This document shows, in pieces, positions 39,359 through 55,735 of a DNA stretch of 64,000 bases; within the stretch, counting starts at the first letter, position 1, and each line of letters begins with the position of its first letter. The notes under the pieces were generated by a model. The model saw nothing but the letters and a program-made list of their open reading frames with translations, made no database searches and had not been told where the DNA came from. The position numbers and the translations under genes are program-made. This DNA is from a virus: the IMG/VR virus record IMGVR_UViG_3300012347_000302, positions 20 to 64,019 of that record, one strand, 5' to 3'.

Positions 39359-39439
39359 AGGAGGGCTTCTTCGATTGGGGGTGTGGGTATTTCTGGAAAT
39401 GGCAGAGTGCCAAGAATAATCGGAAAGGGCCATAGCCGG

Positions 39440-40725: not shown

Positions 40726-40799
40726 TTCCGTTTCTCCCAAAACGCCCAGACATATACGGCTGTGTGAGCAATGCCGATGAGATACATCCACCAAGTCAT
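40722..40799 (-). CDS. 25-aa hydrophobic peptide (not in ORF track)
   Basis: MTWWMYLIGIAHTAVYVWAFWEKRK; ATGA overlaps at both ends. Confidence 0.55.
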   Translation of the reverse strand: MTWWMYLIGIAHTAVYVWAFWEKRK

Positions 40800-41167
40800 G
40801 CGTTCTCCTTGATGCCGTGGGCGGCTTCGATGGCTCGGGCAAAGGCAAGCAGTTGCTCATCAAAAGCACCTGACTGCATAGCGAGGTCGTTGATTTCATC
40901 AATCGTCAGCGGCTTGCGCTGTGCTGGTGGGGATGTGTAAAACTCCGTCCCAACAGGCAGGCTGTCCCACCCTGAACTTGTTACCAGCCCAATACGAGTC
41001 TTTTTTGCCACAGGCTCCTGCTGTGCAAACATGGCTTCAACCTTGGGCGTCTGTTCACGCTCGCAGTACAGATCAACCGTGTGGTCTTTGTCGATGGCGA
41101 CGCTTGCCACCATCATGTCATCACCCCATTGTGTTTTAACAGGGGCTTGTTGCCATTCGAGTTTCAT
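40796..41167 (-). CDS. Hypothetical protein
   Basis: EPVA...Y..PP..KPLT..EI...FARAIEAAHGI pattern common in phages. Confidence 0.7.
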   Translation of the reverse strand: MKLEWQQAPVKTQWGDDMMVASVAIDKDHTVDLYCEREQTPKVEAMFAQQEPVAKKTRIGLVTSSGWDSLPVGTEFYTSPPAQRKPLTIDEINDLAMQSGAFDEQLLAFARAIEAAHGIKENA

Positions 41168-41168
41168 A

Positions 41169-41636
41169 TCAACCCCCAAAGATTTTGCGCAGCTCATCGT
41201 ACAAAGCGCGGGCTTGCTTGATGCTCAGGTTGTTGAGCAAAGTGTCGGCATCCCATGCGGAGTTGATCTGCACCGGCTCGGGGGCTTTCGGCGCTTCGAT
41301 TGGGGCAGGTTTGACTGCTCTTGTGGCAACTGGGGTTGTGCGGGGCAGCGGCTTGTACTCGGGCTGCGCTGCGAACAACGCGCCCTCTGAAGTTTGTCGA
41401 AGATTGCCTCGCGTGACCATCGTAGACAGCAGGGATGTAGACGACCCTTTGGGGATGCCACGCGACATCAACCCAGACACTGCCGCGTCCCGAGTAACAC
41501 CGGGGTTGTCACGCACGTAGTTGAACGTGGCGCGGGTAGAGTTCGACGTGATCGGATGGCCGGTCTCCGCTTTTGTAGGAGCCTCGTCGCTCCATGAGTT
41601 GATGACTTTAGACATTTCAGATTTCAGATCGGGCAT
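41169..41636 (-). CDS. Putative winged-HTH protein
   Basis: FNYVRDNPGVT...S.LL.TMV.RG. Confidence 0.6.
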   Translation of the reverse strand: MPDLKSEMSKVINSWSDEAPTKAETGHPITSNSTRATFNYVRDNPGVTRDAAVSGLMSRGIPKGSSTSLLSTMVTRGNLRQTSEGALFAAQPEYKPLPRTTPVATRAVKPAPIEAPKAPEPVQINSAWDADTLLNNLSIKQARALYDELRKIFGG

Positions 41637-41646
41637 GGTGTTCTCC

Positions 41647-42111
41647 TTATTTTTTGGGCCAGCCGAGCTTGCTCAGATCGGCCATGACGTTTGCGAGTGC
41701 TGGCAGATTCTTGGTAGGCTCTGCCTCGGTGGGGTAATACTTCTTTAACTCGGGGAAGGTGGTCAGTGCTTGCTTGAGCGTGTTGATACCCTCAAAGGCG
41801 GCGGTCAGCTTGCGGTGCATGTCACTGCGCTCTTGCTCCTGTTTCTTGTATGGCTCCGTGATCGCCTTGATCTGTTCCTCTGTCACGTCACCCACCACAA
41901 CGTCTTGCCAGTTGGAATACTGGTTGGTATAGGCGACCGACCTGCGGCGCAGTGCATCTGGCTTGGTCTTGTACAGCTTGCGCACCTCGGGTGACATAGC
42001 CCTGACAACCTCAGCGATGATCGCCTCGGCGCGTTTTACCTTGTCGATGGGTGGGGTGTCCTGCATGATGGCGCGGACAATAGTTTCTTTGTGCAGTTTG
42101 GTCAGTTTCAT
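41647..42111 (-). CDS. Nmad5-like protein (nucleotide modification associated domain 5)
   Basis: MKLTK..KE.IVRAIM.D.P N-terminus; TLKQA....PE..KY.P...NLPALAN..ADLSKLGWPK. Confidence 0.7.
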   Translation of the reverse strand: MKLTKLHKETIVRAIMQDTPPIDKVKRAEAIIAEVVRAMSPEVRKLYKTKPDALRRRSVAYTNQYSNWQDVVVGDVTEEQIKAITEPYKKQEQERSDMHRKLTAAFEGINTLKQALTTFPELKKYYPTEAEPTKNLPALANVMADLSKLGWPKK

Positions 42112-42122
42112 TTCTTTTAACC

Positions 42123-42614
42123 TTAAAACAATTTGGTCTGCGGGGGATTGAGCAGGGAGTCGAGGTCTGGTGGTGTCCAGCCTTCGGGCTTGAGAATCTT
42201 GCCGTCTTCACGGCGGCGCACGGTGCCAGAGTACGGGTCGATCTTGGCCATGTTAGAGCGAACCACTTCGGCCCAGCCTGCGTTCATTGGCCAGCCTCGG
42301 GACAGGCCGTAACCGATCAGCACAACGATCTGATCGAGCACTGCATCGAACTCCTCGATCTCGTCACTGGCGTCCTCTGCATCAAGCATCTCCATGCGCT
42401 CCTCATCGACCAGCTCACGGTACATCTCGGCTTGGAGTTTGTTGGCCTCGTGCGTCGTCTGGCCACACGCTTGCATGAAGAACGCTTGCTCCTCGAACGC
42501 CGTCATAGTAGGTGCCTGTCGCATCTCAAGGCGCTCGCTCAGTGCTTTGATGAGGCCGCTTTGCCCATCGGCTTGTCGGATGAGTTCATCATCTGTTAGG
42601 TTGTCATAAATCAT
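42123..42614 (-). CDS. MazG-like NTP pyrophosphohydrolase (PRA-PH type)
   Basis: LVDEE..E.....EEFDAVLD; EV.RSNMAK; RREDGKILKPEGW.PPDL. Confidence 0.85.
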   Translation of the reverse strand: MIYDNLTDDELIRQADGQSGLIKALSERLEMRQAPTMTAFEEQAFFMQACGQTTHEANKLQAEMYRELVDEERMEMLDAEDASDEIEEFDAVLDQIVVLIGYGLSRGWPMNAGWAEVVRSNMAKIDPYSGTVRRREDGKILKPEGWTPPDLDSLLNPPQTKLF

Positions 42615-42865
42615 GTGAGTTCCAAAAAGGTTAATAGGTTGTTATCGAGATCGGTTGTGAACCACACGATGGCATTGGGTGGCGGTACGTGGACCGTCTT
42701 GAGGTGTGACCCTACGATCGCCGTGTTGACGATGTGCTTGAGCCACTCCGGTCGGCTATCCAACTCGCCACGCCATGAGGTCTCTTCGCCGTCTTGCCAG
42801 CGCTTGAGGTGGTACATGTCGTCACGCTCTTCGTAGCGGTATTCGCGTTCATTGATTGGTGTCAT
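42611..42865 (-). CDS. Hypothetical protein
   Basis: GGAG upstream of ATG 42865; ATGA overlap downstream. Confidence 0.55.
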   Translation of the reverse strand: MTPINEREYRYEERDDMYHLKRWQDGEETSWRGELDSRPEWLKHIVNTAIVGSHLKTVHVPPPNAIVWFTTDLDNNLLTFLELT

Positions 42866-42902
42866 AACTTGATGTTTGTTTCTCCATTGGCGTGATACGT
42901 CT

Positions 42903-43826
42903 TCATCCCTCCACGTCGGCTCCATCATCCCCCACGCCCCAATCGAAGGCATCGAGGATGGCGTCAACGCGTTGCTTGGTTTGGATACGGGTGCTGTGCT
43001 CATCGCGTAATTCTTTCGGTGTGATGCCAGACAATACTTCTTCTAACTTACGTCGTGCTGACTCAAGCTGAGGGTCATTCGTGATGTTCATTGTGGTGAG
43101 CAACTCGCACAGGTCAACTGCGCCAGTCACCGTGGTGTCGTGAAACACTTTCTTCTTGCCGTCCTCGTCAATGGTCAGTCGGTCAGACAGTCGAGTCAGT
43201 GCATCGTGCAGTCGATCCCACGCATCCCGGTTGGCCTGTGCCAGCTTGTTTGTCAACTGGGCTTCGTACTGGGCGATCAGGTCGCGTTGCACTTCGCTCT
43301 CAATATCCAAGCGGAAGTCGCCGCCGGTAGGCAGTGGTGTGAAGCTCGACTCCATGCGAAAACGCAGTGCCACTTGTGAACGGGTCAGGTACTCTTTGCG
43401 ATCGAACAGCGTGCCGAGTTGGAAGGCCGCTGCTGCCACCAGTGTGTCGTACTTGTCGAGGAACGCATCAACCAGTCGCTCGAACTCGTTGCGGTATCGG
43501 TTCATGGTCTGCTGGTACTCAAGCAGTGACGCAGTGGGCAAGAGACGTGCACCTTGGTCATTCCACGGCAGTGTCAGGCGGTAATGCTCGGCGCGTGCTC
43601 GCGCTTGAAACTTGGTCAGGGCATCGAGTTCTTTGCACTCGCTGAACAGGTTCTTGTACACGGATGCGGCACGCTTGGAGTTGGCCCCCTTGTTGGCCAC
43701 GACCTCGGCTTGGGTTGACTTGTCTTGCTTGCGCCCCGAGTACACGGAGATGTGCAGGTCCACCATCATGGCGGAACGAGCGACGCCAGCAACGGCGGAG
43801 GGTTTGATGTCAGTGATGTAGTTCAT
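42903..43826 (-). CDS. DUF3150-like protein
   Basis: LTLPW.D.GARLLP; F...YD; Y.....V..RF......PLP..GDFR; L....N.T.DP.LE. Confidence 0.65.
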   Translation of the reverse strand: MNYITDIKPSAVAGVARSAMMVDLHISVYSGRKQDKSTQAEVVANKGANSKRAASVYKNLFSECKELDALTKFQARARAEHYRLTLPWNDQGARLLPTASLLEYQQTMNRYRNEFERLVDAFLDKYDTLVAAAAFQLGTLFDRKEYLTRSQVALRFRMESSFTPLPTGGDFRLDIESEVQRDLIAQYEAQLTNKLAQANRDAWDRLHDALTRLSDRLTIDEDGKKKVFHDTTVTGAVDLCELLTTMNITNDPQLESARRKLEEVLSGITPKELRDEHSTRIQTKQRVDAILDAFDWGVGDDGADVEG

Positions 43827-43853
43827 GGTGTGTCTTTCTTTTAACCTTAAAAG

Positions 43854-44099
43854 TTATCTGAGTACGCCGCCGATGAGGGCGACCGTTGCGGCTGCTTTAA
43901 GCGCACGTCGGGCTTGTTTAGCCGTCTCGAATACTGTGTTCTCGGGGTAGTCCCCCAGTCCTGACACCCAGTGGCAGTAAACAACAAATCCGGGGCCAAC
44001 CAGCGAGTTTGATTTAGTTGGCTCAACCCAACCTACCTGTACCCAACCTCTCTCGGCTGTGTGCAGATACAGATCGCCGTCTTCCCACTTAGCTCTCAT
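43854..44099 (-). CDS. Small early protein (F-x-T-x-x-x-A family)
   Basis: VFETAKQARRAL; paralogue of 51256-51534. Confidence 0.7.
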   Translation of the reverse strand: MRAKWEDGDLYLHTAERGWVQVGWVEPTKSNSLVGPGFVVYCHWVSGLGDYPENTVFETAKQARRALKAAATVALIGGVLR

Positions 44100-44361
44100 C
44101 GCGGTCTAACTTCATGGCCAGCTTGGTGGCGTCAATAAAGTCGTCGGCAACGAGCGTTACCCCCAGCCACTCATGCGGCTGCTTGACCTCCACAGTGGGG
44201 ATGTAGGCGTTGCTGTATCCTTGCGACCCTTTGTTGTTGCCCACATGCTTCTCGGCCAGTTGTTCGGCGTCCTGCACTGCGGTCATCAGCAGGGCCATCT
44301 GTGTCTCGTTCAAGATCAGCGGCACGCCGCTTACGGATATTTTGTATTTCATGCTGTGCAC
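44089..44361 (-). CDS. Hypothetical protein
   Basis: Overlap-coupled with neighbours; alternative start 44352. Confidence 0.6.
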   Translation of the reverse strand: MHSMKYKISVSGVPLILNETQMALLMTAVQDAEQLAEKHVGNNKGSQGYSNAYIPTVEVKQPHEWLGVTLVADDFIDATKLAMKLDRDES

Positions 44362-44990
44362 TCCTCAATTTCAAAAGTTACGTCGTTACATTCGCACGAC
44401 TCGATGAATGATTCTTCGCTGGTCAGGTGCTCGTACTCGTCACGCAGGTCACGGTAGAGCTGGCGCGATATGTCGCCCACGTAGTCCTGCAACGCTTGCT
44501 CGATACCTGCGCTGAAGAACTGCTCCTCAACCAGCTCGTCCCATGCCTCCTGCTCAAGCGCACTGAAGATGCCGGTTGGGTAAGTATTGCCGACGAGGTT
44601 GCCGTCAAAGTTGACCCGTGCTTGGCAATCCCGACTCCCCGTATTGACCGTGGCGTAGTCGCCGTAGTCTTGTATAGCAAGGTACAGGGCAGGGTACTTC
44701 TCCTCGTAGGTTTGGTCTCCGTCCTTGGTTACTTCCATCCACTCGGCGAGGCTTATGCGCCCCTCGAACGTGGCGTAGTCCCCTTGGCTGTACCACAGGC
44801 TGAACGCTATGCGGTCAACACGCACACCAGCAGGTGCAAGCGTCTCGCGCAGTCGTTCCTCTGCCCAGTCCCACCAGTTGTAGTCAGCGGCGTACTCGGT
44901 CCACTTTAAATACTCCCTTTGGAACCGCTTCAGGTCGGTGCCTCTTAGGGCGGAGGCTGTAATGTTGGTCGGCATCTGGGTACTCTCCAA
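44349..44990 (-). CDS. Acidic hypothetical protein
   Basis: W..W; FSL.YSQGD.A.F.G; LY..L..EYE.LTS.E pattern seen in phage early genes; likely start 44975. Confidence 0.7.
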   Translation of the reverse strand: MESTQMPTNITASALRGTDLKRFQREYLKWTEYAADYNWWDWAEERLRETLAPAGVRVDRIAFSLWYSQGDYATFEGRISLAEWMEVTKDGDQTYEEKYPALYLAIQDYGDYATVNTGSRDCQARVNFDGNLVGNTYPTGIFSALEQEAWDELVEEQFFSAGIEQALQDYVGDISRQLYRDLRDEYEHLTSEESFIESCECNDVTFEIEECTA

Positions 44991-45204
44991 AGTGAATGTT
45001 GATGTGAATCATGGCGATGGCCTTAGCCGCTTCCAGATCGTCCATGCCTTGGGCGATGGGGGCACCGCTTCGGTTGGCTTTATATACGCTCACCTGCCAC
45101 CCGCTATAGTGGGTGACGCGAGCGACCGTCATGTGGCGTGTCTTGTGGGTGAAGGTGTAGGCGTCAAACCCTTCTTCCACCCATTCAAAGTCGTCGATGG
45201 TCAT
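44884..45204 (-). CDS. Small early protein
   Basis: ATGA overlap upstream; DDLEAAKAIA helix; 3' end overlaps the next gene by ~90 nt. Confidence 0.6.
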   Translation of the reverse strand: MTIDDFEWVEEGFDAYTFTHKTRHMTVARVTHYSGWQVSVYKANRSGAPIAQGMDDLEAAKAIAMIHINIHFGEYPDADQHYSLRPKRHRPEAVPKGVFKVDRVRR

Positions 45205-45584
45205 ATGTTGCAGTCAATCGAGCGCCGCACTGCTAGGTAATACTGGTTGTCGTTCCCACTGTGCGTCTCCTCCACATCGTCGCTCTCCTCGCCGATGCGG
45301 ACTCGCTCGGTGCAGTACCCCTCGATCTCCTCGGTGGAGAACGTGTCCAGCATGGACTCAAACATCTTGACGTCTACGTAGCTCGGGTACCACTTCACAC
45401 CCTGCATGTCGAACTTCAACACAAACTCTTTGTCATGCCATGTCATGTACCCGCTGAACTCGTCGGACACATCCTTGAACGTCGTGCCCATCAGCACTTT
45501 GAGTTGTTCGTACGCGGCTTGCTCCCCCAGCTTCGACTGCGCCTCGGGGTAGATGATCGCCATAAAATCTGAGCAGTAACCCAT
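45201..45584 (-). CDS. Acidic hypothetical protein
   Basis: MGY.SD...; VKWY.SY.DV; R.GEE.DD.E. Confidence 0.7.
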   Translation of the reverse strand: MGYCSDFMAIIYPEAQSKLGEQAAYEQLKVLMGTTFKDVSDEFSGYMTWHDKEFVLKFDMQGVKWYPSYVDVKMFESMLDTFSTEEIEGYCTERVRIGEESDDVEETHSGNDNQYYLAVRRSIDCNI

Positions 45585-45585
45585 G

Positions 45586-45891
45586 TCATTTCTCCGTTAA
45601 GACCAGCACAGTGCTGATCGCATCAATCAAGGACTCGTCGGACTGCACGAGGTACACCTCATGTCGGTAGTCATCCGGCCCGTTGGGGTTGTACTTACGT
45701 CGTTGGAACGTGATGTACTTGCCATTCAGCGCCTCCGTTATGGTGAAGGTGCGGTTGAGGTTGTGCACCGAAGGGCCTTCGGTTACGGCTAGCGAGGGTT
45801 GCTCCCCCGCATCCCGCAGCTTCTTCTTTTGCTGGGCTCGATCCCACGAAGCTTTAAATATACGGTCAATGAAATCTGTAATCAGGCTCAT
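45586..45891 (-). CDS. Hypothetical protein
   Basis: ATG overlaps the upstream TGA. Confidence 0.65.
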   Translation of the reverse strand: MSLITDFIDRIFKASWDRAQQKKKLRDAGEQPSLAVTEGPSVHNLNRTFTITEALNGKYITFQRRKYNPNGPDDYRHEVYLVQSDESLIDAISTVLVLTEK

Positions 45892-46019
45892 CACGGTCTC
45901 CAGAAAAATAAATCCAACAACAAAACGACCAAGCAAGTGGAGAACACCACTGCTTCGATCACGTCAATCAACGGTCTGCGCCATGTCGGCACAGGCTTAG
46001 CGGGTCCGGTGTATTTCAT
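45891..46019 (-). CDS. 42-aa membrane peptide (not in ORF track)
   Basis: MKYTG...AVVFSTCLVVLLLDLFFWRP; starts 3 nt after a palindrome. Confidence 0.65.
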   Translation of the reverse strand: MKYTGPAKPVPTWRRPLIDVIEAVVFSTCLVVLLLDLFFWRP

Positions 46020-46030
46020 TTCTTTTAACC

Positions 46031-46297
46031 TTAAATGTTTTTGGCAAGTGCGATGCCAGCCAGCAGTCGGCCGACTTCCTTGGCTTGTTTGATGGTGGGG
46101 AAGTGGTCGACCTCATCCCACTCCTCGTCAGCGCCGGCCCATATCTCCAATCGGAACGGCCCCGTGGGGTCTTTGAACTCGATGCACGCCCAGCATAAAT
46201 CCCTGTCCCCGAGCGGGGTCTCCGACAAGAACGTCCGGTATAGCGCGCCGCCGTAAGTGAGCCTGACTGGCTCCCACCGCTTGCGTAGCCGCCTCAC
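46031..46297 (-). CDS. Small early protein (F-x-T-x-x-x-A family)
   Basis: HFPTIKQAKEVG; its stop codon forms part of a palindrome. Confidence 0.65.
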   Translation of the reverse strand: MRRLRKRWEPVRLTYGGALYRTFLSETPLGDRDLCWACIEFKDPTGPFRLEIWAGADEEWDEVDHFPTIKQAKEVGRLLAGIALAKNI

Positions 46298-47487
46298 ACT
46301 TCCACCTTAATGGTCGTACCGAAGGGTGCCTTCAGGTCAGAGGTAACAGCCCACAGTGTGGGCACATCAGTGCGGCCCCAGTCGCCGACATAACCGTCAG
46401 TGAACTGCACAATGGCTTGCGGGTTGATGTTCTTGTCACGCAGGTAGTCGAACAGCACAGAACCGTCTGTGCCGCCACCGCCTTTGATCTTGAGTTCCTG
46501 AACAGCGAACTGTCCGTCATCGAATGTCTGGTGCCCTGCAACTCGTGTGTCCCAATAGATCACATGCACCTTGCTTGGCTTGACGTCCTCGATGATGGTC
46601 TTGATCTCAGACACGAAGCGTGTCATCTCGTTGCCACCGAAGATCGAGCCGGATGTGTCGAAGCCGATCACGAGTTCCGTCATAGTTGTGCCGACCATCG
46701 AGGGCATGTAAATGTCCATGCCGAGGTAGCGGCGGTTGGGCTTGCGCCATGAAGACTCGTCACGACCTGCGCATGTCTCGGTGATGAACTCGCGCAACAC
46801 TTTCTTCCAGTCGATGGCGGGGGCCATGAGGTCGCCGAACAAGCCGTCCGATTGGCCAGCACCCTTACCTGCCAGCTTCTTGCGCATGATCTCGCCCTGA
46901 CGGATGGCACGTTGAATCTCGTCGGCTTGTTGCTGTTCCTTGGCAGGGTCGTTACCTGCCTCGTTGCCTGACCAGTCGTGCTCGTCAAGCTCGCCGTTCT
47001 CGTCGCCGCCGTTGCCGCTACGGCCCTCACCGCTTGCGTCGTCTTGTTGCATCTGTTGCTTGAGGTCAGCGTAGATCATGGCGACAGACCAGCCACGATA
47101 CTTGGGTTCGACAGGCACACCGATCTTGGGCATCTTGACGAAGCCTTCGCCGTCATCGGTATCGTGCAGTGTCAGGTTCACGAAGAAGTCAGCAGCCACG
47201 TTAGCCAGCCGTGCGTTCTCCTCGTGCAGTGCACGCCATGTCACCATGTGGCGATAGGCTTTGTGCGTTGCCTCGTGCAGTACGAGGAAGCGCAGCTCCG
47301 GGTCAGTGGGCATATGCTCAGCGATGAACTCCGGGTTGTAGATGACGTTCCAGCCGTCCGTTGCGGCCGTTGGTACATCGGTGTTGACAGTTACTTTGCC
47401 ACAGGCAAGGATGCCTGAGTAAGCGCAGAACTTCTTGTGTTGCATGATGGCAATGTGGGCGCGTTTAATTCGATCTGGGACATTCAT
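46294..47487 (-). CDS. Metallopeptidase-like (HExxH) + vWA domain protein (DUF2201-like)
   Basis: AATDG; LHEATH; N.A.D...N; DW...L; DTSGS MIDAS; GGGGTD; FTDG. Confidence 0.88.
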   Translation of the reverse strand: MNVPDRIKRAHIAIMQHKKFCAYSGILACGKVTVNTDVPTAATDGWNVIYNPEFIAEHMPTDPELRFLVLHEATHKAYRHMVTWRALHEENARLANVAADFFVNLTLHDTDDGEGFVKMPKIGVPVEPKYRGWSVAMIYADLKQQMQQDDASGEGRSGNGGDENGELDEHDWSGNEAGNDPAKEQQQADEIQRAIRQGEIMRKKLAGKGAGQSDGLFGDLMAPAIDWKKVLREFITETCAGRDESSWRKPNRRYLGMDIYMPSMVGTTMTELVIGFDTSGSIFGGNEMTRFVSEIKTIIEDVKPSKVHVIYWDTRVAGHQTFDDGQFAVQELKIKGGGGTDGSVLFDYLRDKNINPQAIVQFTDGYVGDWGRTDVPTLWAVTSDLKAPFGTTIKVEV

Positions 47488-47512
47488 GATTGATTTCCTT
47501 TAAGGTTAAAAG

Positions 47513-47797
47513 TTATTTGAGGAACGTGTCCTCGTGTGAGTAGTTCGATGCCTTGCGGGGGTTGAGCCTGTACTCAATGAGCTTGGACACCAGCATGCGG
47601 TCACGCAGTTTGCGAACGTAGTACCCGACCACTTTGCGTTCAAACCAGTTGAACTTGAACGGCACCTCGTGCGGTTGCATGGTTTCGGTGTTGATGATGA
47701 GAAACGACTTGGCGTGCTTGATCGCTGAGTGTTTGATGATCCAGTCGTCCTCCTTGAGTGCATGGACCACATGCTTGGTGAACTCTCTCATTGCCAC
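47513..47797 (-). CDS. Hypothetical protein
   Basis: 94 aa, coupled with the upstream gene. Confidence 0.6.
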   Translation of the reverse strand: MAMREFTKHVVHALKEDDWIIKHSAIKHAKSFLIINTETMQPHEVPFKFNWFERKVVGYYVRKLRDRMLVSKLIEYRLNPRKASNYSHEDTFLK

Positions 47798-47958
47798 TCC
47801 CTGCGCTTGGCCAGCAGTGCGCTTTGCAGCTTCTCCATGTCGCGGCTATCGACATAGTTCTTGCTCGGTGCATAGGCTTTGCCGATGCGGTTGGGATGCC
47901 AGTCGTGCTTGATCTTCACGAGGGTCTTGCCGTTGGATTGTTGTTCGATGATTAGCAT
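47788..47958 (-). CDS. Hypothetical protein (56 aa)
   Basis: AGGA upstream of ATG 47958. Confidence 0.55.
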   Translation of the reverse strand: MLIIEQQSNGKTLVKIKHDWHPNRIGKAYAPSKNYVDSRDMEKLQSALLAKRREWQ

Positions 47959-48185
47959 TTGATTTCCTGTGGGTATCCTAAAAGTTTCATGAGGCCGATG
48001 CACTCGGCCTTGGTTATGTTGGTTGCGATGGTCTGCGCTGCTGAGATACCGAGGGGGTCACGGTCCCAGCTATACACATCCAAAGACCAGCGCCACGGTG
48101 CCCACCACAATCGGTGCGGCGCAACAGCGAAGATTTCATGCGATATGGGGAACAAGTACATGTCCCCCGAGCGAAGGGGTTTCAA
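47952..48185 (-). CDS. Small early protein
   Basis: Trp-rich; follows a palindrome; start uncertain (48185 or 48161). Confidence 0.55.
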   Translation of the reverse strand: MKPLRSGDMYLFPISHEIFAVAPHRLWWAPWRWSLDVYSWDRDPLGISAAQTIATNITKAECIGLMKLLGYPQEIKC

Positions 48186-48194
48186 CTTTTAACC

Positions 48195-49262
48195 TTAAAA
48201 GTATTTGCCCAGCTTGGCTGCTGCTGCGGTGAACTTGCGGTTCTTGCATGCCATGCCTACCTTGTTGCGGTTGGACGCGAGGGAGGTAACAAAGAGAGCG
48301 TGTGCCTCGAATGATTGGTCAGCCATACGCTCGGCGTACTCCATCACAGGGTCGAGGTTGTCTGCGTCCACTCGGCCAGCCAGCATGAACGCAAGGATGA
48401 ACAGCGCACCGACACTCTCGGGCACCTTGGTCTTGGTCGGGGTCTTCACGATGTTCTCGAACAGCGGCAACTGGTCAGCCAGATTCACAAGGGCTTCCAT
48501 GTCACGGGCAGCAGCCTCGCCGACAGTACCTGCAAGGGCTGGAATCAACGCAGTGCCGAGCACGCTGCGCTGCTTGATGATGTTCGATGCCTTGGTCAGC
48601 GAACGAGGTGAGCAGAAGGCCCGCACGTTGCCCGTCATGGGGTTGAAGATGTAGGGGTTCTTGTCTTTCTTGTCGAGGTCTGCATAGCAGTCGAAGACCT
48701 GCGGGTACTGCTTGGCAAACGCCATCACCTCGGGGGCTACGTTGTGGCCCGATGCCCAGTCAATCCACTGGTCGGCCGATGGGTTGGCCACAGTCACGAC
48801 AGTCATACGGTTGAACGCATGGGCTGGGATGTTGTCACCCACGCCGTCAGTGTCGAGGTTGGTTGTGCCGAACACAATGGAGCCGGTAGGCAGGGGCACA
48901 TCACCGATGCGACCTTCGAGAATCACAGGCAACAGCATGTTGAGCACAGGGCGTGACGCTTTACCCAACTCGTCGAGCATCAGCACGACAGGGCGTGTCT
49001 GGCCCTTGCCTACACCGAAGCGAGCGTTGGGTGCGTAGTTGGTGACCATTGTGTCTTTGTCGATGACTGGCATACCCAGATCGCCGAGGTCGAGGTTGGC
49101 TACGTCGATGTAGCAGATTTGATAGTCAGGCAGTTCACGTTCGAGTGTCTGCAAGATGGAAGACTTGCCGATGCCGGGCTGGCCGCGCAAGAGCAGGGTG
49201 TTTGTAGTGCCGACGTTGCGGATGAGAGTTGCAGCTTGGTTCAGGTTGATAGACATAGACAT
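48195..49262 (-). CDS. MoxR-like AAA+ ATPase
   Basis: GQPGIGKS Walker A; LMLDELGK Walker B; GTTN sensor; NRM; SPRS. Confidence 0.88.
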   Translation of the reverse strand: MSMSINLNQAATLIRNVGTTNTLLLRGQPGIGKSSILQTLERELPDYQICYIDVANLDLGDLGMPVIDKDTMVTNYAPNARFGVGKGQTRPVVLMLDELGKASRPVLNMLLPVILEGRIGDVPLPTGSIVFGTTNLDTDGVGDNIPAHAFNRMTVVTVANPSADQWIDWASGHNVAPEVMAFAKQYPQVFDCYADLDKKDKNPYIFNPMTGNVRAFCSPRSLTKASNIIKQRSVLGTALIPALAGTVGEAAARDMEALVNLADQLPLFENIVKTPTKTKVPESVGALFILAFMLAGRVDADNLDPVMEYAERMADQSFEAHALFVTSLASNRNKVGMACKNRKFTAAAAKLGKYF

Positions 49263-49318
49263 GATGATTTCCTTGGATTGAAAAGTTTTAAGATTAAAGG
49301 TTTGAGCTTTCGCTCGGC

Positions 49319-50056
49319 TTACAAGACTGTCTCGTCGGTATCGACGAGCTTGGTCATTGTTCGGGTTTGGCTTGCAATGAGTGACCTCAGTGCAGCTTTG
49401 TGATCGGGGTGGCTGGGCCTGCCTGTGTGTCGTGCATGGTATGTGCTGTACTTCGCAAGGGCCACAAGTTCGGGCCATTCGTTGGCGTGACAGTCAGAGG
49501 TCATGATCTTTCGTGTCAATGTTGCGAGCCAGCTCTGTGTAGGAACCTCGGCTGCTTGGTACAGAACAGGGAACATACCGACGAACCCAGACTCTTTAAT
49601 GTCTTGGCGAAACTCAGCGGTTTCTTCACGGTCGGTGCGCTTGGCTGAGAACTGCTTGGCTTCGCCCATCAGCTTGCCCTCGACGTCGAACGCCATGCCG
49701 TCATAGTACCTGTACGTCTTGCCGTTGACACGGATGCCGGTCTGCGAGTACCCACCCTTACGCACGCTGAACAGATAGCCCATGCCGAAGAAGCTAGTCA
49801 GTGCGTCGTTCATTGCACTGCGTGTAGTAGGTGACGTATGCCAGCCATTGGTGTTGAGCATGATGCTCCCATCCTCATAAGCGGTGATGAGGTCTGCGCT
49901 GTGCATACGCACCAGCATCTGCCCACCGTTGCCCTGCACTACACGGAAGTGTGTCTTGGCCCGGCGTGTCTTGTCTGCGGGTGCGTCGCCTTTGAATCGG
50001 CCACGCTTGTACACATGGCGTTCGAGGTGCAGTTTGAGTTTGGTGTGTGCTGTCAT
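49319..50056 (-). CDS. Hypothetical protein (245 aa)
   Basis: L.TNGW..SPTT...MN; follows a palindrome. Confidence 0.7.
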   Translation of the reverse strand: MTAHTKLKLHLERHVYKRGRFKGDAPADKTRRAKTHFRVVQGNGGQMLVRMHSADLITAYEDGSIMLNTNGWHTSPTTRSAMNDALTSFFGMGYLFSVRKGGYSQTGIRVNGKTYRYYDGMAFDVEGKLMGEAKQFSAKRTDREETAEFRQDIKESGFVGMFPVLYQAAEVPTQSWLATLTRKIMTSDCHANEWPELVALAKYSTYHARHTGRPSHPDHKAALRSLIASQTRTMTKLVDTDETVL

Positions 50057-50082
50057 GATGTACTTTCTTTTAAGGTTAAAAC

Positions 50083-50355
50083 TCATGTCGCGGGGTGCGT
50101 CATCTTCCCGATAGCATGGGTAACGAGCGCCCAATCCACGGCGTCTCGCAAGGCTTCGAGCTGTTCGACAGTGCTTATACTCACTGTACACGCAGGAGTT
50201 CCTGCTGATCCGTCCTCCGCTTCGCCCCCGCCGTAGAAGATGGTGAGGTGCGGTCGCCATGAACTGTGCCCGTCGGTTGCCTCCAAAGTTACTCGCCGAG
50301 CTATGACTGGCATGTTTTCGTGTATGAGAAATGCCTTTGCCTCATAAACTTGCAT
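50083..50355 (-). CDS. Hypothetical protein
   Basis: Overlap-coupled; ends at a palindrome. Confidence 0.55.
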   Translation of the reverse strand: MQVYEAKAFLIHENMPVIARRVTLEATDGHSSWRPHLTIFYGGGEAEDGSAGTPACTVSISTVEQLEALRDAVDWALVTHAIGKMTHPAT

Positions 50356-50587
50356 CTGTCTTCTCCTTGGGTTTGTCGAGCTTGACGAGTTCGCCAGCAG
50401 CTACGCTGAAGGCATGTGATACGGCCAGCAGATCGTTCAGTTCTTTCTGTGCACTCAACAGTACGTTGACTGCTGTCTCTTTGGCCATGCCCTGCATGAG
50501 CAGGGTGGCTATCTCAGGCTTGCGTTGCATCGACTTGCGCAGCAGTCGGATGGCTTGCTGCTCGTCGAGCATGAGTTTGATCGTCAT
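50342..50587 (-). CDS. Helical hypothetical protein (81 aa)
   Basis: ATG 2 nt after a palindrome. Confidence 0.6.
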   Translation of the reverse strand: MTIKLMLDEQQAIRLLRKSMQRKPEIATLLMQGMAKETAVNVLLSAQKELNDLLAVSHAFSVAAGELVKLDKPKEKTDASL

Positions 50588-50604
50588 ACTTTTAACCTTA
50601 AAAG

Positions 50605-50817
50605 TTACAGGCTTCCGCCCTTGTGTGATGAGTTGAGTCCCTTGAGTAGGGACAGATCGGTGAACAACATGTAGTTGCTCTTGGGCATGGGTGCCACTGT
50701 GTGCTTGACCTTCTTGGCTTGCTTCTCGCCGCAGGTCAGGCATGTGCGATACCCGAGCTGGTATCGTTGCATTGGAATGTCCTCGATGTAGCACGAGGGG
50801 CATAGGGGTTCAGTCAT
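50605..50817 (-). CDS. C4 zinc-finger protein, DksA/TraR-like
   Basis: CPSC-YIEDIPMQR...-CLTC. Confidence 0.6.
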   Translation of the reverse strand: MTEPLCPSCYIEDIPMQRYQLGYRTCLTCGEKQAKKVKHTVAPMPKSNYMLFTDLSLLKGLNSSHKGGSL

Positions 50818-51014
50818 TGGTTCTCCACGGTGGTGATGAATTGCAGGAAGTCTTTGGCGGATTCTCTGTTGTCGAACTCACCACGGACGATGGGGTTGTC
50901 GATGGTTCCCGCAGTGCGGGCGTACCACATTTGGCTGTCCGACTCGTAGCCAATCCAGCCGAGCACACGGTTACGGTTAAACAGCACAGAGCCTTTCCAT
51001 TCGGGTTCGGTCAT
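50814..51014 (-). CDS. Small early protein (F-x-T-x-x-x-A family)
   Basis: GEFDNRESAKDFL. Confidence 0.7.
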   Translation of the reverse strand: MTEPEWKGSVLFNRNRVLGWIGYESDSQMWYARTAGTIDNPIVRGEFDNRESAKDFLQFITTVENQ

Positions 51015-51259
51015 GATTGGCTTCCTTCGATTACTCTGAGCACAGCGAGTGCTTGGGTTAGGGTTTTGAACTGTTGCAATGGGCGCTCACATTCTTTGGT
51101 GTCGTCATCAAGCCAGTCACACAGGTGGTAGTCAGGCACGAAGGGGAATCGCGCAACTACATACCCACATTCAGCCTTGCTGCTGTCGATGTGCCAGACA
51201 ACGCAGTCATCCCACACTGACCGTGTGTACCCGTCTCTCTTTACGTGGTCGAGCATCAT
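51011..51259 (-). CDS. Small early protein (F-x-T-x-x-x-A family)
   Basis: QFKTLTQALAVL. Confidence 0.65.
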   Translation of the reverse strand: MMLDHVKRDGYTRSVWDDCVVWHIDSSKAECGYVVARFPFVPDYHLCDWLDDDTKECERPLQQFKTLTQALAVLRVIEGSQS

Positions 51260-51534
51260 TTGCGCCCCCTGAACCCGCCGATAACGGCGACCATTGATGC
51301 GTCGATCAGGGCTTGCAGGGCTTCGTGCTCCGTGTCGAAGATGTGCTTCTCAGGGTAGACGGGCGGCGACAGCCACGGTCGTTGGTATGAATCGTTGGGC
51401 ATGTCAGTCATCCATGAGCACAGGCAGTAGAACTGCGTGTGGTTGGTGTTCTGTACCCAGCCCATCTTGAACGGCTTGGTGCCGTTCTCCATGTCGCACA
51501 GCAGGTCGTGTGTGTTTACGAAGTAGAGCTTCAT
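51256..51534 (-). CDS. Small early protein (F-x-T-x-x-x-A family)
   Basis: IFDTEHEALQAL; ATG 2 nt after a palindrome. Confidence 0.7.
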   Translation of the reverse strand: MKLYFVNTHDLLCDMENGTKPFKMGWVQNTNHTQFYCLCSWMTDMPNDSYQRPWLSPPVYPEKHIFDTEHEALQALIDASMVAVIGGFRGRK

Positions 51535-51568
51535 TGTTTTAACCTTAAAAGTTTCAACGCGCCGCGCG

Positions 51569-51793
51569 TCATAGTTGTCGGCTTGCCGTGATGGTGACGA
51601 GGAAGTCTTGGGCTTCTTCGAGCGTTGGCATGACACCCAGAAACTCACGGGCGTAGGGGTTCTTGCTGGGGTTCTCGCCGTACACGCTGACCGCATCGGG
51701 CTTGACCTCATACACAAGGCCAACTGATTTGCCGTTTACTACCAGCCAGTGTTGTCGTGGTATGCGGGCGTCGGCTATCCATCGGTAGTTCAT
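51569..51793 (-). CDS. Small early protein (F-x-T-x-x-x-A family)
   Basis: GVMPTLEEAQDFL. Confidence 0.7.
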   Translation of the reverse strand: MNYRWIADARIPRQHWLVVNGKSVGLVYEVKPDAVSVYGENPSKNPYAREFLGVMPTLEEAQDFLVTITASRQL

Positions 51794-52083
51794 ATCTGTA
51801 TTCCTTGTATCTTGAGGACTGCAACGAGTTCGGGGACTTTGCGTTCGACTGCACGTTTGGCCGCTTCGAGCGTGGGGTACTTGTGCTTGAGGATGTATGC
51901 GTTGGGCGGCACAAGATCGTTGAAGTGGTAGCTGAGGTTGACTCGATAGTGGTTCTTGGGGTTGCCCGGGATGTGATACACACCTGCCACGCCGATGGAG
52001 CGTGACAACTCCACGGTGTTCTCGTCGTACCTGTAGGTGTAGTGCCCATTCCTCAGAGGGCCGAACCATTCAAAGGTTGTCAT
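51790..52083 (-). CDS. Small early protein (F-x-T-x-x-x-A family)
   Basis: KYPTLEAAKRAV. Confidence 0.7.
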   Translation of the reverse strand: MTTFEWFGPLRNGHYTYRYDENTVELSRSIGVAGVYHIPGNPKNHYRVNLSYHFNDLVPPNAYILKHKYPTLEAAKRAVERKVPELVAVLKIQGIQI

Positions 52084-52337
52084 TCGTCGTCTCCAGTGTT
52101 TGCACAGTGCCTGATCCACATGGCGGGCAGGTGGCGTTCGCAGAAGTTCTTGGCACCTCGCTTGGTCTTGAACTTCTCGCCATCGGGGAACTCGTTGTCC
52201 TTCATGTCCATGAACTTGCATATGTAGTGGGCGTTGCGCCGGATGAACGCGAGGAGGTGCCAGTCATCCGCAGTGACCTGCACCCGCAGGTCAAGGTCGT
52301 CTGGGTAGCGGGCGTCGTAGTCCCATTTGTAGTTCAT
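52080..52337 (-). CDS. Small early protein (F-x-T-x-x-x-A family)
   Basis: KFKTKRGAKNFC. Confidence 0.7.
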   Translation of the reverse strand: MNYKWDYDARYPDDLDLRVQVTADDWHLLAFIRRNAHYICKFMDMKDNEFPDGEKFKTKRGAKNFCERHLPAMWIRHCANTGDDE

Positions 52338-52495
52338 GATTGTCCCCCTTCAGGCATACCGCAGTCGGACAGGAACGCAACGAGTGCGTCCTCTGGGGTG
52401 TGGCCCAGCAATTCGGCAATGGCCGTCCAGTCTTGCGAGTCAATGTCGAGTTTCATCTGTTCGATCACAGCGTCAATCAATGCGGCGTCTTTCAT
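52334..52495 (-). CDS. Small acidic protein (53 aa)
   Basis: AAAGGA RBS just after a palindrome; LID.VIEQ...D....D.TAI.ELL. Confidence 0.65.
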   Translation of the reverse strand: MKDAALIDAVIEQMKLDIDSQDWTAIAELLGHTPEDALVAFLSDCGMPEGGQS

Positions 52496-52517
52496 GGCGA
52501 TTCCTTTAAGCTTAAAA

Positions 52518-52913
52518 GATATGCGGTATTGCACATCACAAAGGGCACAGGTATTGCCTATGCCCTTCAGGATGCCACCTCGTGAGAGGTGTCCTTGGAC
52601 TGCGATAGTGTTTGTCGGGCTGGCATATCGGGGTTGGTTACCCTTCCAGCGCCCTAACGCTCATACATAATTTCTTAGAGAGGAGCGCACACAGTTAGGC
52701 AGTGGGTGAACGTATTGCATGAAGCTATCGTCGCTGGTGACTCTGGCCTATGGCGACTACACCACTTCATACCCCCGGCTATACGGGGACGCCTTCTCGT
52801 CTGTGGGGAGTGATCTCATATCCATGTCGGGGATGCTTGGTGGCTGTCCCGCTGTCTGGCCTAATTCCTACTACACGACTTTTGCTTGTGCAACGGCGGC
52901 TCGATGGGAAATC
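52518..52913 (-). ncRNA. Candidate structured non-coding RNA/long leader
   Basis: No sense-strand ORF of 60 aa or more; several hairpins; three GCAATAC copies; flanked by two palindromes; downstream of a strong promoter. Confidence 0.35.
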
Positions 52914-53028
52914 CTTTAACCTTAAAAGTTATAGAAAATCCTAACTGTCTCTGGGTTGTTAAGGAGCATGAGCCGCACATGAATAAGGCTGGCTGGGAAT
53001 TGGAAACGATCTCCAACTCGATATATGT

Positions 53029-53057
53029 ATTCTACCACAAATACCTATATATGTCAA
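53029..53057 (-). promoter_or_regulatory. Strong sigma70 early promoter
   Basis: On - strand TTGACA-17 nt-TAGAAT with extended -10 TG. Confidence 0.85.
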
Positions 53058-53074
53058 GTCTTTTCGGTGGGGGT

Positions 53075-53100
53075 TGGGGGGCAGGTTTGCCCCCCATTTT
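53075..53100 (+). terminator. 9-bp GC hairpin with U-tract on the + strand
   Basis: TGGGGGGCA-GGTT-TGCCCCCCA-TTTT; at the 3' end of the - strand gene 53104-53349. Confidence 0.55.
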
Positions 53101-53103
53101 GGC

Positions 53104-53349
53104 TTAGCTGTTGATGATGGCTTCGATGTCGGCTTCACTCATGGCATAGATCACTGCAATGGATTCGATGGATTTGCCGGTTGACCTGACGTGCTTGATG
53201 ATCTTGGCCCGCTGGTCGTAGTCGGTCTTGAGGTATTCCTGCAAGGCTCTGACCACGGCAGCATCAACGCTGCCTGCACGGGCAATGAGTTCATCGGCCA
53301 CATCAAGCGGTAGGTCAAGCTCAACGGTGTGGAATTCGGGTGTTGTCAT
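53104..53349 (-). CDS. Putative DNA-binding protein (RHH-like + HTH-like)
   Basis: TVELDLPLDVADEL...VVRALQEYL; KSIESIAVIYAMSEADIEAII. Confidence 0.6.
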   Translation of the reverse strand: MTTPEFHTVELDLPLDVADELIARAGSVDAAVVRALQEYLKTDYDQRAKIIKHVRSTGKSIESIAVIYAMSEADIEAIINS

Positions 53350-53369
53350 AGTTGTGGTCTCCTGTTGGT

Positions 53370-54221
53370 TCAGATGGCGAAGTCTGGGTTGTTGGGGTCG
53401 AACATGGACACGTCCACCTTGGCTGGGTCAGGGATTTTGATCGGCTTGGGTTGTTGGAACAGCTCAGGGTTTCGCATGGATGGTGGGATGACTGCCAGTT
53501 TACGGGGTGCAGGGGTGGAAACTTCTAAGCTTAAAACTTCCTGTGGTTGGGATGCGGCAATGGATGCGTTCGCCTTATCGCCGATGGTGGGTTTGGCTGG
53601 CAGGTTCGCTTTGTATGCAGCGTACAGGTCGCGCACTCGCTGCACATCCAACTCATAGGTGTTCGCGGCAACGGCAATGGTCATGCCCGCGTCGAGTTCG
53701 TCATACATACGCATGAGGTTGGGCTGGCCGTGAGACTGGCGGGGGTTGGGCTTAGAGCCGCGTCCACGGCGTGGAGTATCCCCGCTGGCTACACGATGCA
53801 GGGCTACGATCTGCCCAACGCGCACAATGGATATGCCGAACTCGGATGCAACCTCGGCTTGTGTGGCCCCGGCTTTGATTCGCGCGTACAGATCGGCGTC
53901 GCGCTGCTCGTTGATCTTGGGTCGGCCTACGGTGCCACGGGTCATGCTGAGCCGGTCGGCCTCGGTGGATAGCAGTTGGATGGCAGAGCGCAGAGCCTTG
54001 GCAGGGGATGTGTCCAGTTGTTTGGCCAGCTCCTGCAGGGTGTTATACGTGGCAGGGCCCATGCCGTTGATAAGCTGCAGGCCAGCGCGGGTTGCGCTTT
54101 CTACGGTGCCTTCAAAGGTTTCGGTGATGCGGTGGGCTACGGCAAGGGGGATTTCGATGGTGATGGAACGCATGGCGGGGTCTGGAGTGGGTGCGGTTGT
54201 TGGGTGGGTGCTGTCGGTCAT
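53370..54221 (-). CDS. Multi-domain DNA-binding regulator (RHH-like + two HTH)
   Basis: GATQAEVASEFGISIVRVGQIV; GMTIAVAANTYELDVQRVRDLY; N-terminus similar to 53104-53349. Confidence 0.7.
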   Translation of the reverse strand: MTDSTHPTTAPTPDPAMRSITIEIPLAVAHRITETFEGTVESATRAGLQLINGMGPATYNTLQELAKQLDTSPAKALRSAIQLLSTEADRLSMTRGTVGRPKINEQRDADLYARIKAGATQAEVASEFGISIVRVGQIVALHRVASGDTPRRGRGSKPNPRQSHGQPNLMRMYDELDAGMTIAVAANTYELDVQRVRDLYAAYKANLPAKPTIGDKANASIAASQPQEVLSLEVSTPAPRKLAVIPPSMRNPELFQQPKPIKIPDPAKVDVSMFDPNNPDFAI

Positions 54222-54560
54222 AGTAGTCCTTGGGGGTGGGGTTGATGAAGGGGTCAGTGTATCACAGGTTAGGGCTTATGGGTAGTTGTGAAACAGATGT
54301 ACAGACGGGGGGAGTTTTGCTACGGGGCGGGGGATCAATATGTAATCGCTGGAAGCCCCTCGTGGCTTGGGGGTTGGCCGGAAGGGTAGCTATTTGATGA
54401 TACGAGTTACGGCGATACAGGGTGTCCAGAGCCCGCCAGAGACCCCCTGCCCGGACTAAACTTTTAACGTTAAAACTTCCGCAAGTGAGCCAAAGACCTT
54501 TCCTAGCTTTTCATACCTAAAAGCCTGTACATCAGTAACAATAAACAAATAAATATCTAA

Positions 54561-54577
54561 TCTCTCTCTCTCTCTCT
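54561..54577. repeat. (TC)8T microsatellite in non-coding control region
   Basis: Read directly from the sequence. Confidence 0.9.
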
Positions 54578-54893
54578 GCCGTAAGTGCTTGATTTCATTG
54601 GATATTTTCCCTTAGCTATTTTGCTTTAGTCGTGATACGGGGGTTTTGTAACGAGCCCTGATTTTCTGTACGGCTGTTCCACAACAACCAATATCTTTTA
54701 ACCTTAAAACTCTCCGGGGGTCTTGCGCGCGGCGTGTGCTCGGCGCCTGCACCTCATGCCATCGCCCTGCCGCTTGGCCGCCTCTCCCTCACGCACGGCT
54801 GCGCACACTCGCACTCACACTCTCCCTCACGGTCGCACTACTATGACGGTTCCCCACAGACGTGGGGAACGTGGGCTCCAAAAAGTACAGGCG

Positions 54894-54918
54894 AAAAAAA
54901 GCCCGGCCGGAGCCGGGC
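54894..54918 (-). terminator. Terminator after first early gene
   Basis: On - strand GCCCGGC-TCCG-GCCGGGC-TTTTTTT. Confidence 0.85.
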
Positions 54919-54942
54919 GGTAAGGGCTTGCGCCCTTGGGTC

Positions 54943-55473
54943 TCACTTGCTGAGCACGGTCTCCTCAAAACCATCCAAGCGATCTTGGCACAAGTCAACC
55001 AAGTCGGCGGCAAAATCGAGCAAGCCAAGCAAGCGGGCTTGCGCCATTGCTTTAGATAACGTTTTGTCCAAGTCGGTGCGACTTGTCGATTGCACGGCGC
55101 CGGATGCCTTGGCGCTTGTCTTGGCTTCGCCGGTTTCGCCCTTTTCTTTTTTGTTGTTCAGGTCACGCTTGAATTCAATGCCTTGTTCGAAGGCGATCCA
55201 AAATGCAGATTGATACGATGCGCCGGATGATTTGCTAATGAAGCCCTTTTCAACGATGGCATCGAACATGGCTTTGATCTGGCCGCGTGCTGGGTTAGTC
55301 TTTGCGTTACCCTTCAAGAACTCAGCCTTGGGTTTGTCACACGCAATGAACATGGCATCGAGCGCACCTTGGATGGCCTTGTCTTGGCTAGTGCGAGCCT
55401 TGGCGATGGCCTTGGCTTCGCCCTCAAACGAACGGACAACGGCGGCGATAAGGGAGGCATTGATAACGGACAT
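54943..55473 (-). CDS. First gene of the - arm, unknown function (176 aa)
   Basis: AAGGA RBS; own promoter and terminator. Confidence 0.75.
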   Translation of the reverse strand: MSVINASLIAAVVRSFEGEAKAIAKARTSQDKAIQGALDAMFIACDKPKAEFLKGNAKTNPARGQIKAMFDAIVEKGFISKSSGASYQSAFWIAFEQGIEFKRDLNNKKEKGETGEAKTSAKASGAVQSTSRTDLDKTLSKAMAQARLLGLLDFAADLVDLCQDRLDGFEETVLSK

Positions 55474-55520
55474 GATGTTTTCCTTTAGGTTTTTCTCAGT
55501 CACCATCGACTGAGGACTCA

Positions 55521-55549
55521 ACTGTAACCCAACGCATAGGTAATGTCAA
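55521..55549 (-). promoter_or_regulatory. Sigma70 promoter of the first early gene
   Basis: On - strand TTGACA-17 nt-TACAGT. Confidence 0.75.
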
Positions 55550-55562
55550 CCCCATTACCTAT
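55536..55562. promoter_or_regulatory. Operator-like inverted repeat overlapping the -35 box
   Basis: ATAGGTAATG-N7-CATTACCTAT, perfect 10-bp arms. Confidence 0.7.
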
Positions 55563-55735
55563 TGTTTAACCTTAAAAGTCCGGGGTCTGACCCCACCGCA
55601 CCCGGGGGCCCACAACGGCAAACTGGGACTCCTCCCGTCCGCTTACGCTGAGTGGCGTATCCTCCACCACCCCTAAAAAACAAAACTATATATAACTAAT
55701 TTCAAATTTAACTCGACGACATCAATGTCGTCGAC

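Follow-up and report, generated by a model that had tools for sequence, protein, structure and literature searches.

The early region of an uncultivated freshwater phage is punctuated by copies of a short palindrome, TTTTAANNTTAAAA (TTTTAA-NN-TTAAAA), and the question raised by this locus is what reads these sites and what they do. The DNA analysed here, called the window, comprises 64,000 of the 64,211 bases of one viral contig (IMG/VR record IMGVR_UViG_3300012347_000302) and is almost a whole genome. The palindromes are best interpreted as operator-type sites in double-stranded DNA for a phage-encoded homodimeric early protein, most likely g176, the 176-residue product of the first early gene, which would control the early genes. 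A probability of roughly 55 per cent is assigned to this reading, which a preliminary description of the locus had listed among its options as operators of a phage regulator. Five properties of the sites can be observed directly: their enrichment, their symmetry, their concerted lineage-specific change, their positional orthology and their placement at the promoter of the first early gene.

The palindrome array and its lineage-specific versions

The exact palindrome occurs eight times in the whole window, where 0.00 copies are expected, and 16 copies are present when up to one mismatch is allowed, compared with 0.04 expected. A scan with two mismatches adds none (0.57 expected), so copies are either near-perfect or absent. 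All 16 lie within 38919–55577, in the early arm. The preliminary description had reported eight perfect and seven one-mismatch copies in 42115–55577, at a density calling for a genome-wide count against background; the recount agrees and the excess is clear. Its remark that none was seen elsewhere holds in that the array is confined to the early arm, but a sixteenth, outlying copy with one mismatch, inside a gene at 38919–38932, had been missed.

On the coding (minus) strand the consensus is wAAC-TTTTAA-GG-TTAAAA-Gww, a palindrome of about 20 bp whose arms are extended by AAC...GTT/GAA. The centre varies, conservation stops at ±10 nt and no hexamers are conserved around the copies. The element is thus dyad-symmetric with specific outer positions and a free centre, as in operators of the Cro/CI type. 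Ten of the 16 copies end 1–23 nt before a minus-strand start codon. At seven, the stop codon of the upstream gene lies inside or abuts the palindrome (42123, 43854, 46031, 47513, 48195, 50083 and 50605). Five stand away from any start: one upstream of P1, the promoter of the first early gene, two in a 680-nt non-coding gap, one downstream of a second promoter, P2, and one inside a gene for a 283-residue protein. The positions relative to starts and stops, the variable centre with its GTT/AAC arm extension, the copy ahead of the first promoter and the sequence CCGGGG(G)TCT common to the flanks of the copies at 54696 and 55564 are all as first described.

Related loci in IMG/VR were gathered through the DUF2201 protein (68 loci, 62–93% identity) and through the first early protein (58 more), and about 100 loci carry versions of the motif. 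Close relatives keep the window's motif. The others each repeat a different palindrome of the design nnnTAA-N(2-4)-TTAnnn, so that at least 12 lineage-specific motif classes are found. Half-sites separated by two bases (N2) are TTCTAA, G/ATCTAA, TCTTAA, TTATAA, AACTAA and C/TCGTAA; those separated by three (N3) are TTCTAA, ATCTAA and TTTTAA; and TTTTAA also occurs with a spacing of four (N4). The C/TCGTAA-NN-TTACGR type is seen in loci L050 and L051, and L051 has TTCTAA-N3 as well, so that one genome may hold two site families. Positions are conserved even where sequences are not. Junctions before the orthologues of the MoxR-type ATPase, the DUF2201 protein, g245 and g307 carry the lineage's own motif in almost every class, those before MoxR and DUF2201 in all classes. 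Genes inside apparent units (MazG, g130, g213 and g126) are never preceded by the motif in relatives, and the replication modules of relatives contain either no copy or one. Nearly all classes also have their own motif ahead of the P1 TTGACA; in most N2 classes the gap is fixed at 13–14 bp, with the motif centre near −55.

The most direct evidence for a reader comes from loci L034 and L058, whose DNA is about 90% identical across most of 21 kb. At no fewer than ten orthologous junctions, every copy differs between them by one symmetric double change, TTCTAA..TTAGAA in the former and TTATAA..TTATAA in the latter. As judged from these alignments, the sites have changed in place and in concert. 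Such a switch requires a sequence-specific reader that differs between these phages.

A host protein had been put forward as a possible binder, its sites serving as decoys or anchors during DNA entry; a nucleoid-associated or division-control factor would be an example. The early arm probably enters the cell first, and A-T-rich islands in G+C-rich DNA attract nucleoid proteins. Against this, phages with about 90% identity and the same G+C content (0.47–0.49), which probably infect the same host group, fall into three motif classes. The specificity is sharp, as the two-mismatch scan indicates, and a phage protein covaries with the motif. To our knowledge, no consensus site of IHF, Fis, CRP or SlmA fits the palindrome. 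A host reader is considered highly improbable.

The comparison of classes also bears on whether DNA or RNA is recognized. The preliminary description had argued for binding of double-stranded DNA by a dimer rather than an RNA signal, and the motif comparisons support DNA recognition by a phage-encoded reader: the copy upstream of P1 lies outside the early transcript, in DNA that is probably not transcribed; the central orientation is neutral; hairpins are weak; and arms change symmetrically and in concert. Seven of eight palindrome copies folded as RNA give 0 to −3.7 kcal/mol, with z about 0, and the eighth (48187), which has flanking G–C pairs, gives −7.2 kcal/mol with z −1.3. Five genomes hold many hybrid sites, TTCTAA..TTATAA, whose arms are no longer complementary. 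Unstable folds and hybrids that break arm pairing together rule out a requirement for an RNA or DNA hairpin.

The centre appears to be used differently from the arms. In the window's class, GG outnumbers CC on the coding strand by 46:1 at sites followed by a start no more than 4 nt away, since AAGG is then 8–9 nt from the ATG and acts as a Shine–Dalgarno (SD) sequence. At longer gaps the centre is CC-biased, and where no start follows GG and CC are about balanced. In other classes the motif ends 15–19 nt before the ATG and a separate SD (GGAG) follows. Translation thus seems to shape the centre and not the arms, the use of AAGG as an SD being secondary.

The motif could still act primarily on RNA, as an initiation or enhancer element combining an SD with A/U-rich flanks, as the target of a translational repressor, or as a ribonuclease site on a polycistronic early mRNA. 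The location of ten of the 16 copies within 25 nt of a start and the GG bias at short gaps fit such a role, and an A/U-rich single strand in G+C-rich RNA would be a likely RNase E target. However, a core complementary to the anti-SD sequence 5–10 nt from the start holds only at copies with gaps of 2–3 nt; it fails for the CC-centred, start-less and P1-upstream copies and for the other classes, whose centres include TA, CC and GC. The five window copies near no start are likewise unaccounted for, the conserved P1-upstream copy is not transcribed in that direction, and an SD needs no symmetric, concerted changes in two arms. A primary function in RNA is distinctly improbable.

Mixed motif sets with many hybrids are found in L017, L023, L027, L030, L038, L153 and L163. 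Two origins are conceivable: the genomes may be passing from one specificity to another, or G-to-T mutation with a strand bias may have acted while the reader was relaxed.

A candidate reader from the first early gene

The preliminary description had proposed four proteins of the window for binding assays, encoded at 53370–54221, 53104–53349, 41169–41636 and 31517–31765. All are excluded as determinants of specificity, being 90–94% or fully identical across motif classes. In the 82-residue Cro-type HTH_3 protein (31517–31765) the recognition helix does not vary, and L034 and L058 encode identical copies of the protein despite their different motifs. The protein g155 (41169–41636) reaches an identity of 0.90 across classes. 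The proteins at 53370–54221 and 53104–53349, the second belonging to the window's clade, are adjacent paralogues with a ribbon–helix–helix (RHH)-like N-terminus and a sigma-region-4-like helix–turn–helix (HTH), the recognition helix of which is kept in all classes. The larger is 94% identical between L034 and L029, and that of L025 is 86% identical to that of L034, yet these three phages represent three motifs. This pair could read the invariant TAA..TTA core or another site.

A covariation screen was applied to 25 early families sampled in genomes with pure motif sets. Among the well-sampled families, g176 alone is never common to two motif classes: its maximum cross-class identity is 0.66, compared with 0.78–1.0 for the others, and five alignment columns separate the classes perfectly. 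In an enlarged set of 42 unique sequences from 12 classes, all 20 pairs with at least 80% identity share a class and none crosses. Four genomes with mixed TTCTAA and TTATAA sites have a g176 type of their own in common.

Structure prediction adds to this picture. The g176 homodimer model scores 0.71 (best control, 0.01), a mark reached by 20 of 30 solved homodimers and by one of 23 solved monomers. At least 73% of contacts recur between runs, with a predicted local distance difference test (pLDDT) value of at least 78 for the partner. In the model the interface is formed by residues 1–44, 61–79 and 130–166. A helix at 61–75, a loop and a second helix at 81–97 follow one another in an arrangement that is only suggestive of a DNA-binding domain. 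The second helix lies outside the interface, and the class-informative residues include 82, 85, 86 and 89 (its positions 2, 5, 6 and 9), which lie on one exposed face. There, Gln is found with TTATAA and Ala/Ser with TTTTAA, and Lys/Arg at 85 accompanies most TTCTAA motifs; these pairings agree with common amino acid–base preferences. From covariation and modelling, g176 is the most likely reader of the palindrome.

Placement of the copies and proposed control of early transcription

About 40 early genes, mostly of unknown function, are read from the minus strand, from 55473 down to 28615. They include genes for a MoxR-type ATPase, a DUF2201/VWA protein and MazG, and are followed by a replication module with DNA polymerase A, an exonuclease, a helicase and a primase–helicase. 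The late genes (plus strand, 55736 around to 28407) encode TerL, the portal, virion proteins and a polyvalent protein of 1774 residues.

The promoter P1 (55521–55549, minus strand) is of sigma-70 type, TTGACA-17-TACAGT, with a TTGACA that is conserved in relatives. A one-mismatch palindrome (55564–55577) lies 14 nt upstream of its −35 box, with its centre at about −55. The gene for g176 follows at 54943–55473 on the minus strand and ends in a strong intrinsic terminator (54901–54918, minus strand; a 7-bp GC stem, then seven T residues), so that it is monocistronic. A second inverted repeat, GGTAAT...ATTACC, surrounds the −35 box of P1 (55530–55560) and is not obviously conserved in relatives. 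A G-rich element of approximate sequence GGGGnCGGTGGGGTC (55580–55615, minus strand) is also present upstream of the first early promoter in loci L001–L066. It is kept in nearly all motif classes, 10–25 nt upstream of the promoter-proximal palindrome at the point where early and late genes diverge, and could be a genome-end, packaging or G-quadruplex element.

The 680-nt non-coding gap between the g176 terminator and the next gene (54222–54900) contains two exact palindromes, at 54696–54709 and, with centre CG, at 54462–54475. It also holds a (GA)n run near 54555–54575, and beside the 54696 copy it partly repeats the sequence found ahead of the P1 copy. The next copy (53523–53536, one mismatch) lies within the coding region of the 283-residue RHH/HTH protein. 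The second strong promoter, P2 (TTGACA-17-TAGAAT, 53057–53029, minus strand), is followed after about 100 nt by a one-mismatch copy with no start codon near (52914–52927). From there to the next palindrome, about 400 nt (52518–52913) are without open reading frames, are 66–70% identical in close relatives and have no Rfam match. Rfam and tRNA scans of the window and its non-coding gaps gave no match at all.

The remaining junction copies lie in short gaps between units of one to five genes, within the first 13.5 kb of the early arm. A one-mismatch copy at 52504–52517 ends 8 nt before the ATG at 52495. Exact copies at 51537–51550, in which the central AAGG serves as SD, and at 50590–50603 each end 2 nt before an ATG (51534 and 50587, respectively). 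The latter marks the upstream border of a two-gene cassette, and the exact copy at 50068–50081, with CC on the coding strand and 11 nt before the ATG at 50056, marks its downstream border. The MoxR ATPase gene starts at 49262, 23 nt after a one-mismatch copy (49286–49299), and its stop codon overlaps an exact copy (48187–48200) that ends 1 nt before a TTG start at 48185. The DUF2201/VWA gene begins with the ATG at 47487, 10 nt after a one-mismatch copy (47498–47511). Further along lie a one-mismatch copy 3 nt before the ATG at 46019 (46023–46036), an exact copy 12 nt before the ATG at 43826 of the gene for a 307-residue protein (43839–43852) and an exact copy (42115–42128) that shares bases with the MazG stop codon and is followed after 3 nt by the ATG at 42111.

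Repeats bordering cassettes invite the explanation, also offered in the preliminary description, that they are crossover points for the gain and loss of early genes and owe their uniformity to copying rather than to a binding protein. One clean example supports a recombinational effect: in the window, copies at 50590 and 50068 flank the two genes at 50082–50589; in L001 and L002 the same neighbouring genes are joined directly through one copy. Many blocks of homology end within 20 nt of a site, and some copies in relatives have spread with duplicated small genes. Yet breakpoints of homology are not enriched at the motif, falling at ten of 16 motif sites and at 23 of 30 gene junctions without one; orthologous sites switch in place between genomes of about 90% identity without exchange of flanks; and the P1 copy, at its fixed spacing, has no cassette logic. 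The PeSL cassettes of T4-type phages, to which the repeats had been compared, combine a strong sigma-70 promoter with a terminator stem-loop (PMC2839356, PMC4122927). They resemble the window in having repeated motifs between small early genes in a plastic region, and the recombination from copy to copy by which they delete or insert genes (PMC2839356, PMC4122927) has one exact parallel in the window; the palindromes come with neither promoter nor stem-loop. A primarily recombinational role is improbable; recombination at the repeats looks like a by-product. In L013, three tandem small paralogous genes (2730, 2951 and 3453) each have a palindrome and a conserved 34-nt leader, from which it follows that some copies spread by joint duplication of site and gene.

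Six-frame searches of the window found no tyrosine integrase, no sigma region 2 (PF04542) and no T7-like RNA polymerase (PF00940), the last a weak negative in that the PF00940 control scored in no genome. Two large proteins, of 1774 and 1638 residues, contain no DxDGD or HD[SAG] motif, gave nothing in a phmmer search of the PDB and match only LPD38 and DUF6242 in Pfam. These negatives make it probable that the phage is virulent and relies on the RNA polymerase of its host. A search of GenBank phages yielded no near-identical record and no near relative, and the closest TerL matches are distant (about 40% identity, pelagiphage HTVC023P-type phages). The phage DNA is present in freshwater metagenomes, and the RNA runs checked gave no match. 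Alignments of TerL itself (56421–58844; 807 residues) with other terminases fall into two parts, consistent with an intein-like insert. The last late gene (23083–28407) encodes the 1774-residue polyvalent protein, whose LPD38 domain is matched with E = 2e-26 and which is probably ejected.

Against this background, the palindromes might themselves be phage-specific, middle-type promoters, at each of which an unrecognized polymerase or a phage factor starts transcription; g176 could be such a factor, in the role of activator or sigma-like adaptor. A promoter scan found only two or three sigma-70-type promoters in 18.5 kb, none at the junction palindromes, and 16 sites in 17 kb is the density of phage promoters. 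The sites head units of one to five genes and never precede genes inside a unit; in other classes the distance of 15–19 nt from motif to ATG, with GGAG between, is compatible with a promoter; and lineage-specific motif change is typical of promoter–polymerase pairs. The element itself, however, is symmetric about a dyad and lacks any conserved asymmetric flank. With the SD inside the motif and only 2–3 nt from motif to ATG, sites of the window's class offer no space for a transcription start and leader. One copy sits upstream of a complete sigma-70 promoter, several have no gene downstream, and the polymerase and sigma searches, for all the weakness of the former, were negative, as was inspection of the large virion proteins for polymerase motifs. 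Promoter function is judged rather unlikely.

The preferred reading, that of operators for a phage-encoded dimer, can be cast as a sequence of steps. We infer that a protein binds the sites, that g176 is this protein and that its binding affects transcription. g176 would be made at once from the host-type promoter P1, and the weaker palindrome about 55 bp upstream of the P1 start would provide feedback on that promoter. Ogr-type activators of phage P2 also act from about −55. Since there is no promoter room between junction site and start, and no conserved hexamers, a dimer at a junction copy would most simply modulate, and most plausibly block, host RNA polymerase arriving from P1 or P2, much as stoperators do. 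The centre, not being contacted, would be free to vary and to be co-opted for translation, AAGG becoming an SD where the start is 2–3 nt away. Identical sites of 14–20 bp flanking gene units may occasionally serve as crossover points.

Several observations weigh against this reading. g176 has no Pfam or PHROG match, matches no HTH or repressor family and has no recognizable DNA-binding domain; a Foldseek search with its model found no match at E ≤ 0.001 in the PDB and AFDB clusters. The protein evolves fast and adjoins the P1 site, so its covariation may partly reflect lineage. Columns 5, 40 and 161 also carry class signal, and the residue code is imperfect, as L034, a TTCTAA phage, has Thr85 and Gln86. 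The half-site spacing varies from N2 to N4 across classes, which is unusual for a rigid dimer. Hybrids almost always have TTCTAA on the left and TTATAA on the right of the coding strand, a directionality that a symmetric reader does not explain. If bound sites blocked polymerase ahead of the replication genes, which are read from the same strand, these genes too would be deprived of transcription, unless served by promoters of their own. Lastly, the position of the sites at the heads of gene units is much like that of phage promoters.

Comparable systems and biological meaning

The operators of lambdoid Cro and CI proteins, such as the 14-bp site of phage 434, are dyads in which the recognition helix of each subunit reads the outer positions and the centre is uncontacted. 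Their specificity differs between related phages, and about six operators serve two promoters. The window differs in its array at gene junctions and in that g176 has no detectable Cro/CI-type domain.

By analogy, the closest described feature is the dyad repeat of the Cluster O mycobacteriophages, and the closest mechanism is the stoperator system. The 17-bp Cluster O repeat, TGTTCGG-NNN-CCGAACA, is present in dozens of copies; a dimeric regulator was suggested by its authors, and neither its reader nor its function is known (PMC4351075). Like the window's element, it has invariant inverted arms, a variable centre whose orientation carries little meaning, and many copies in short gaps between genes or close to gene 5′ ends, with a concentration in one transcription arm (PMC4351075). 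It differs in sequence and in host phylum, its copies occur genome-wide and often inside genes, and no series of lineage-specific variants or candidate reader has been described (PMC4351075).

In the stoperators of Cluster A phages (L5 gp71, Bxb1 gp69), one phage protein reads more than 20 short sites. These are 13 bp long, asymmetric and orientation-dependent, and are bound by the monomeric, two-domain immunity repressor of temperate phages (PMC9283540). One site at the early promoter, the rest in short gaps overlapping start and stop codons, and co-evolution of site and protein across phages are features common to both systems, and the elongation block proposed for stoperators is the one envisaged for the window (PMC9283540). 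The window differs in its dyad-symmetric sites, in showing no integrase and in its candidate reader, an unrelated all-helical protein predicted to dimerize. A further parallel is found in the T1-like phage TLS, where intergenic 21-nt direct repeats remain an open question for which stoperator and UP-element functions have been raised (PMC11447400). About 18 intergenic copies lie upstream of starts in a phage with few sigma-70 promoters and no polymerase or sigma gene of its own, as in the window, but the repeats of TLS lack symmetry, are oriented with transcription and are placed about 76 nt ahead of the starts (PMC11447400).

A more specific proposal is offered tentatively. g176 may represent a new, unannotated family of dimeric DNA-binding early proteins with about 600 metagenomic members, in which residues 82, 85, 86 and 89 would have co-evolved with at least 12 operator specificities, including the N2–N4 spacings, by way of promiscuous intermediates now seen as mixed and hybrid genomes. 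The array would then be a stoperator-like control of early genes with an independent origin in virulent phages.

That palindromes recur at the gene junctions of phages is already known. The novelty lies in how broad the specificity series is and in having a concrete reader to test, from a protein family without annotation. This phage group is a natural experiment in which equivalent junctions carry at least 12 versions of the motif, phages paired at about 90% identity differ by a switch at all their sites, and some genomes resemble intermediates. With one candidate reader and few specificity residues to consider, the question of function can be tested directly. If g176 is confirmed, it would provide a new DNA-binding family and a model for the joint change in specificity of a protein and dozens of its sites.

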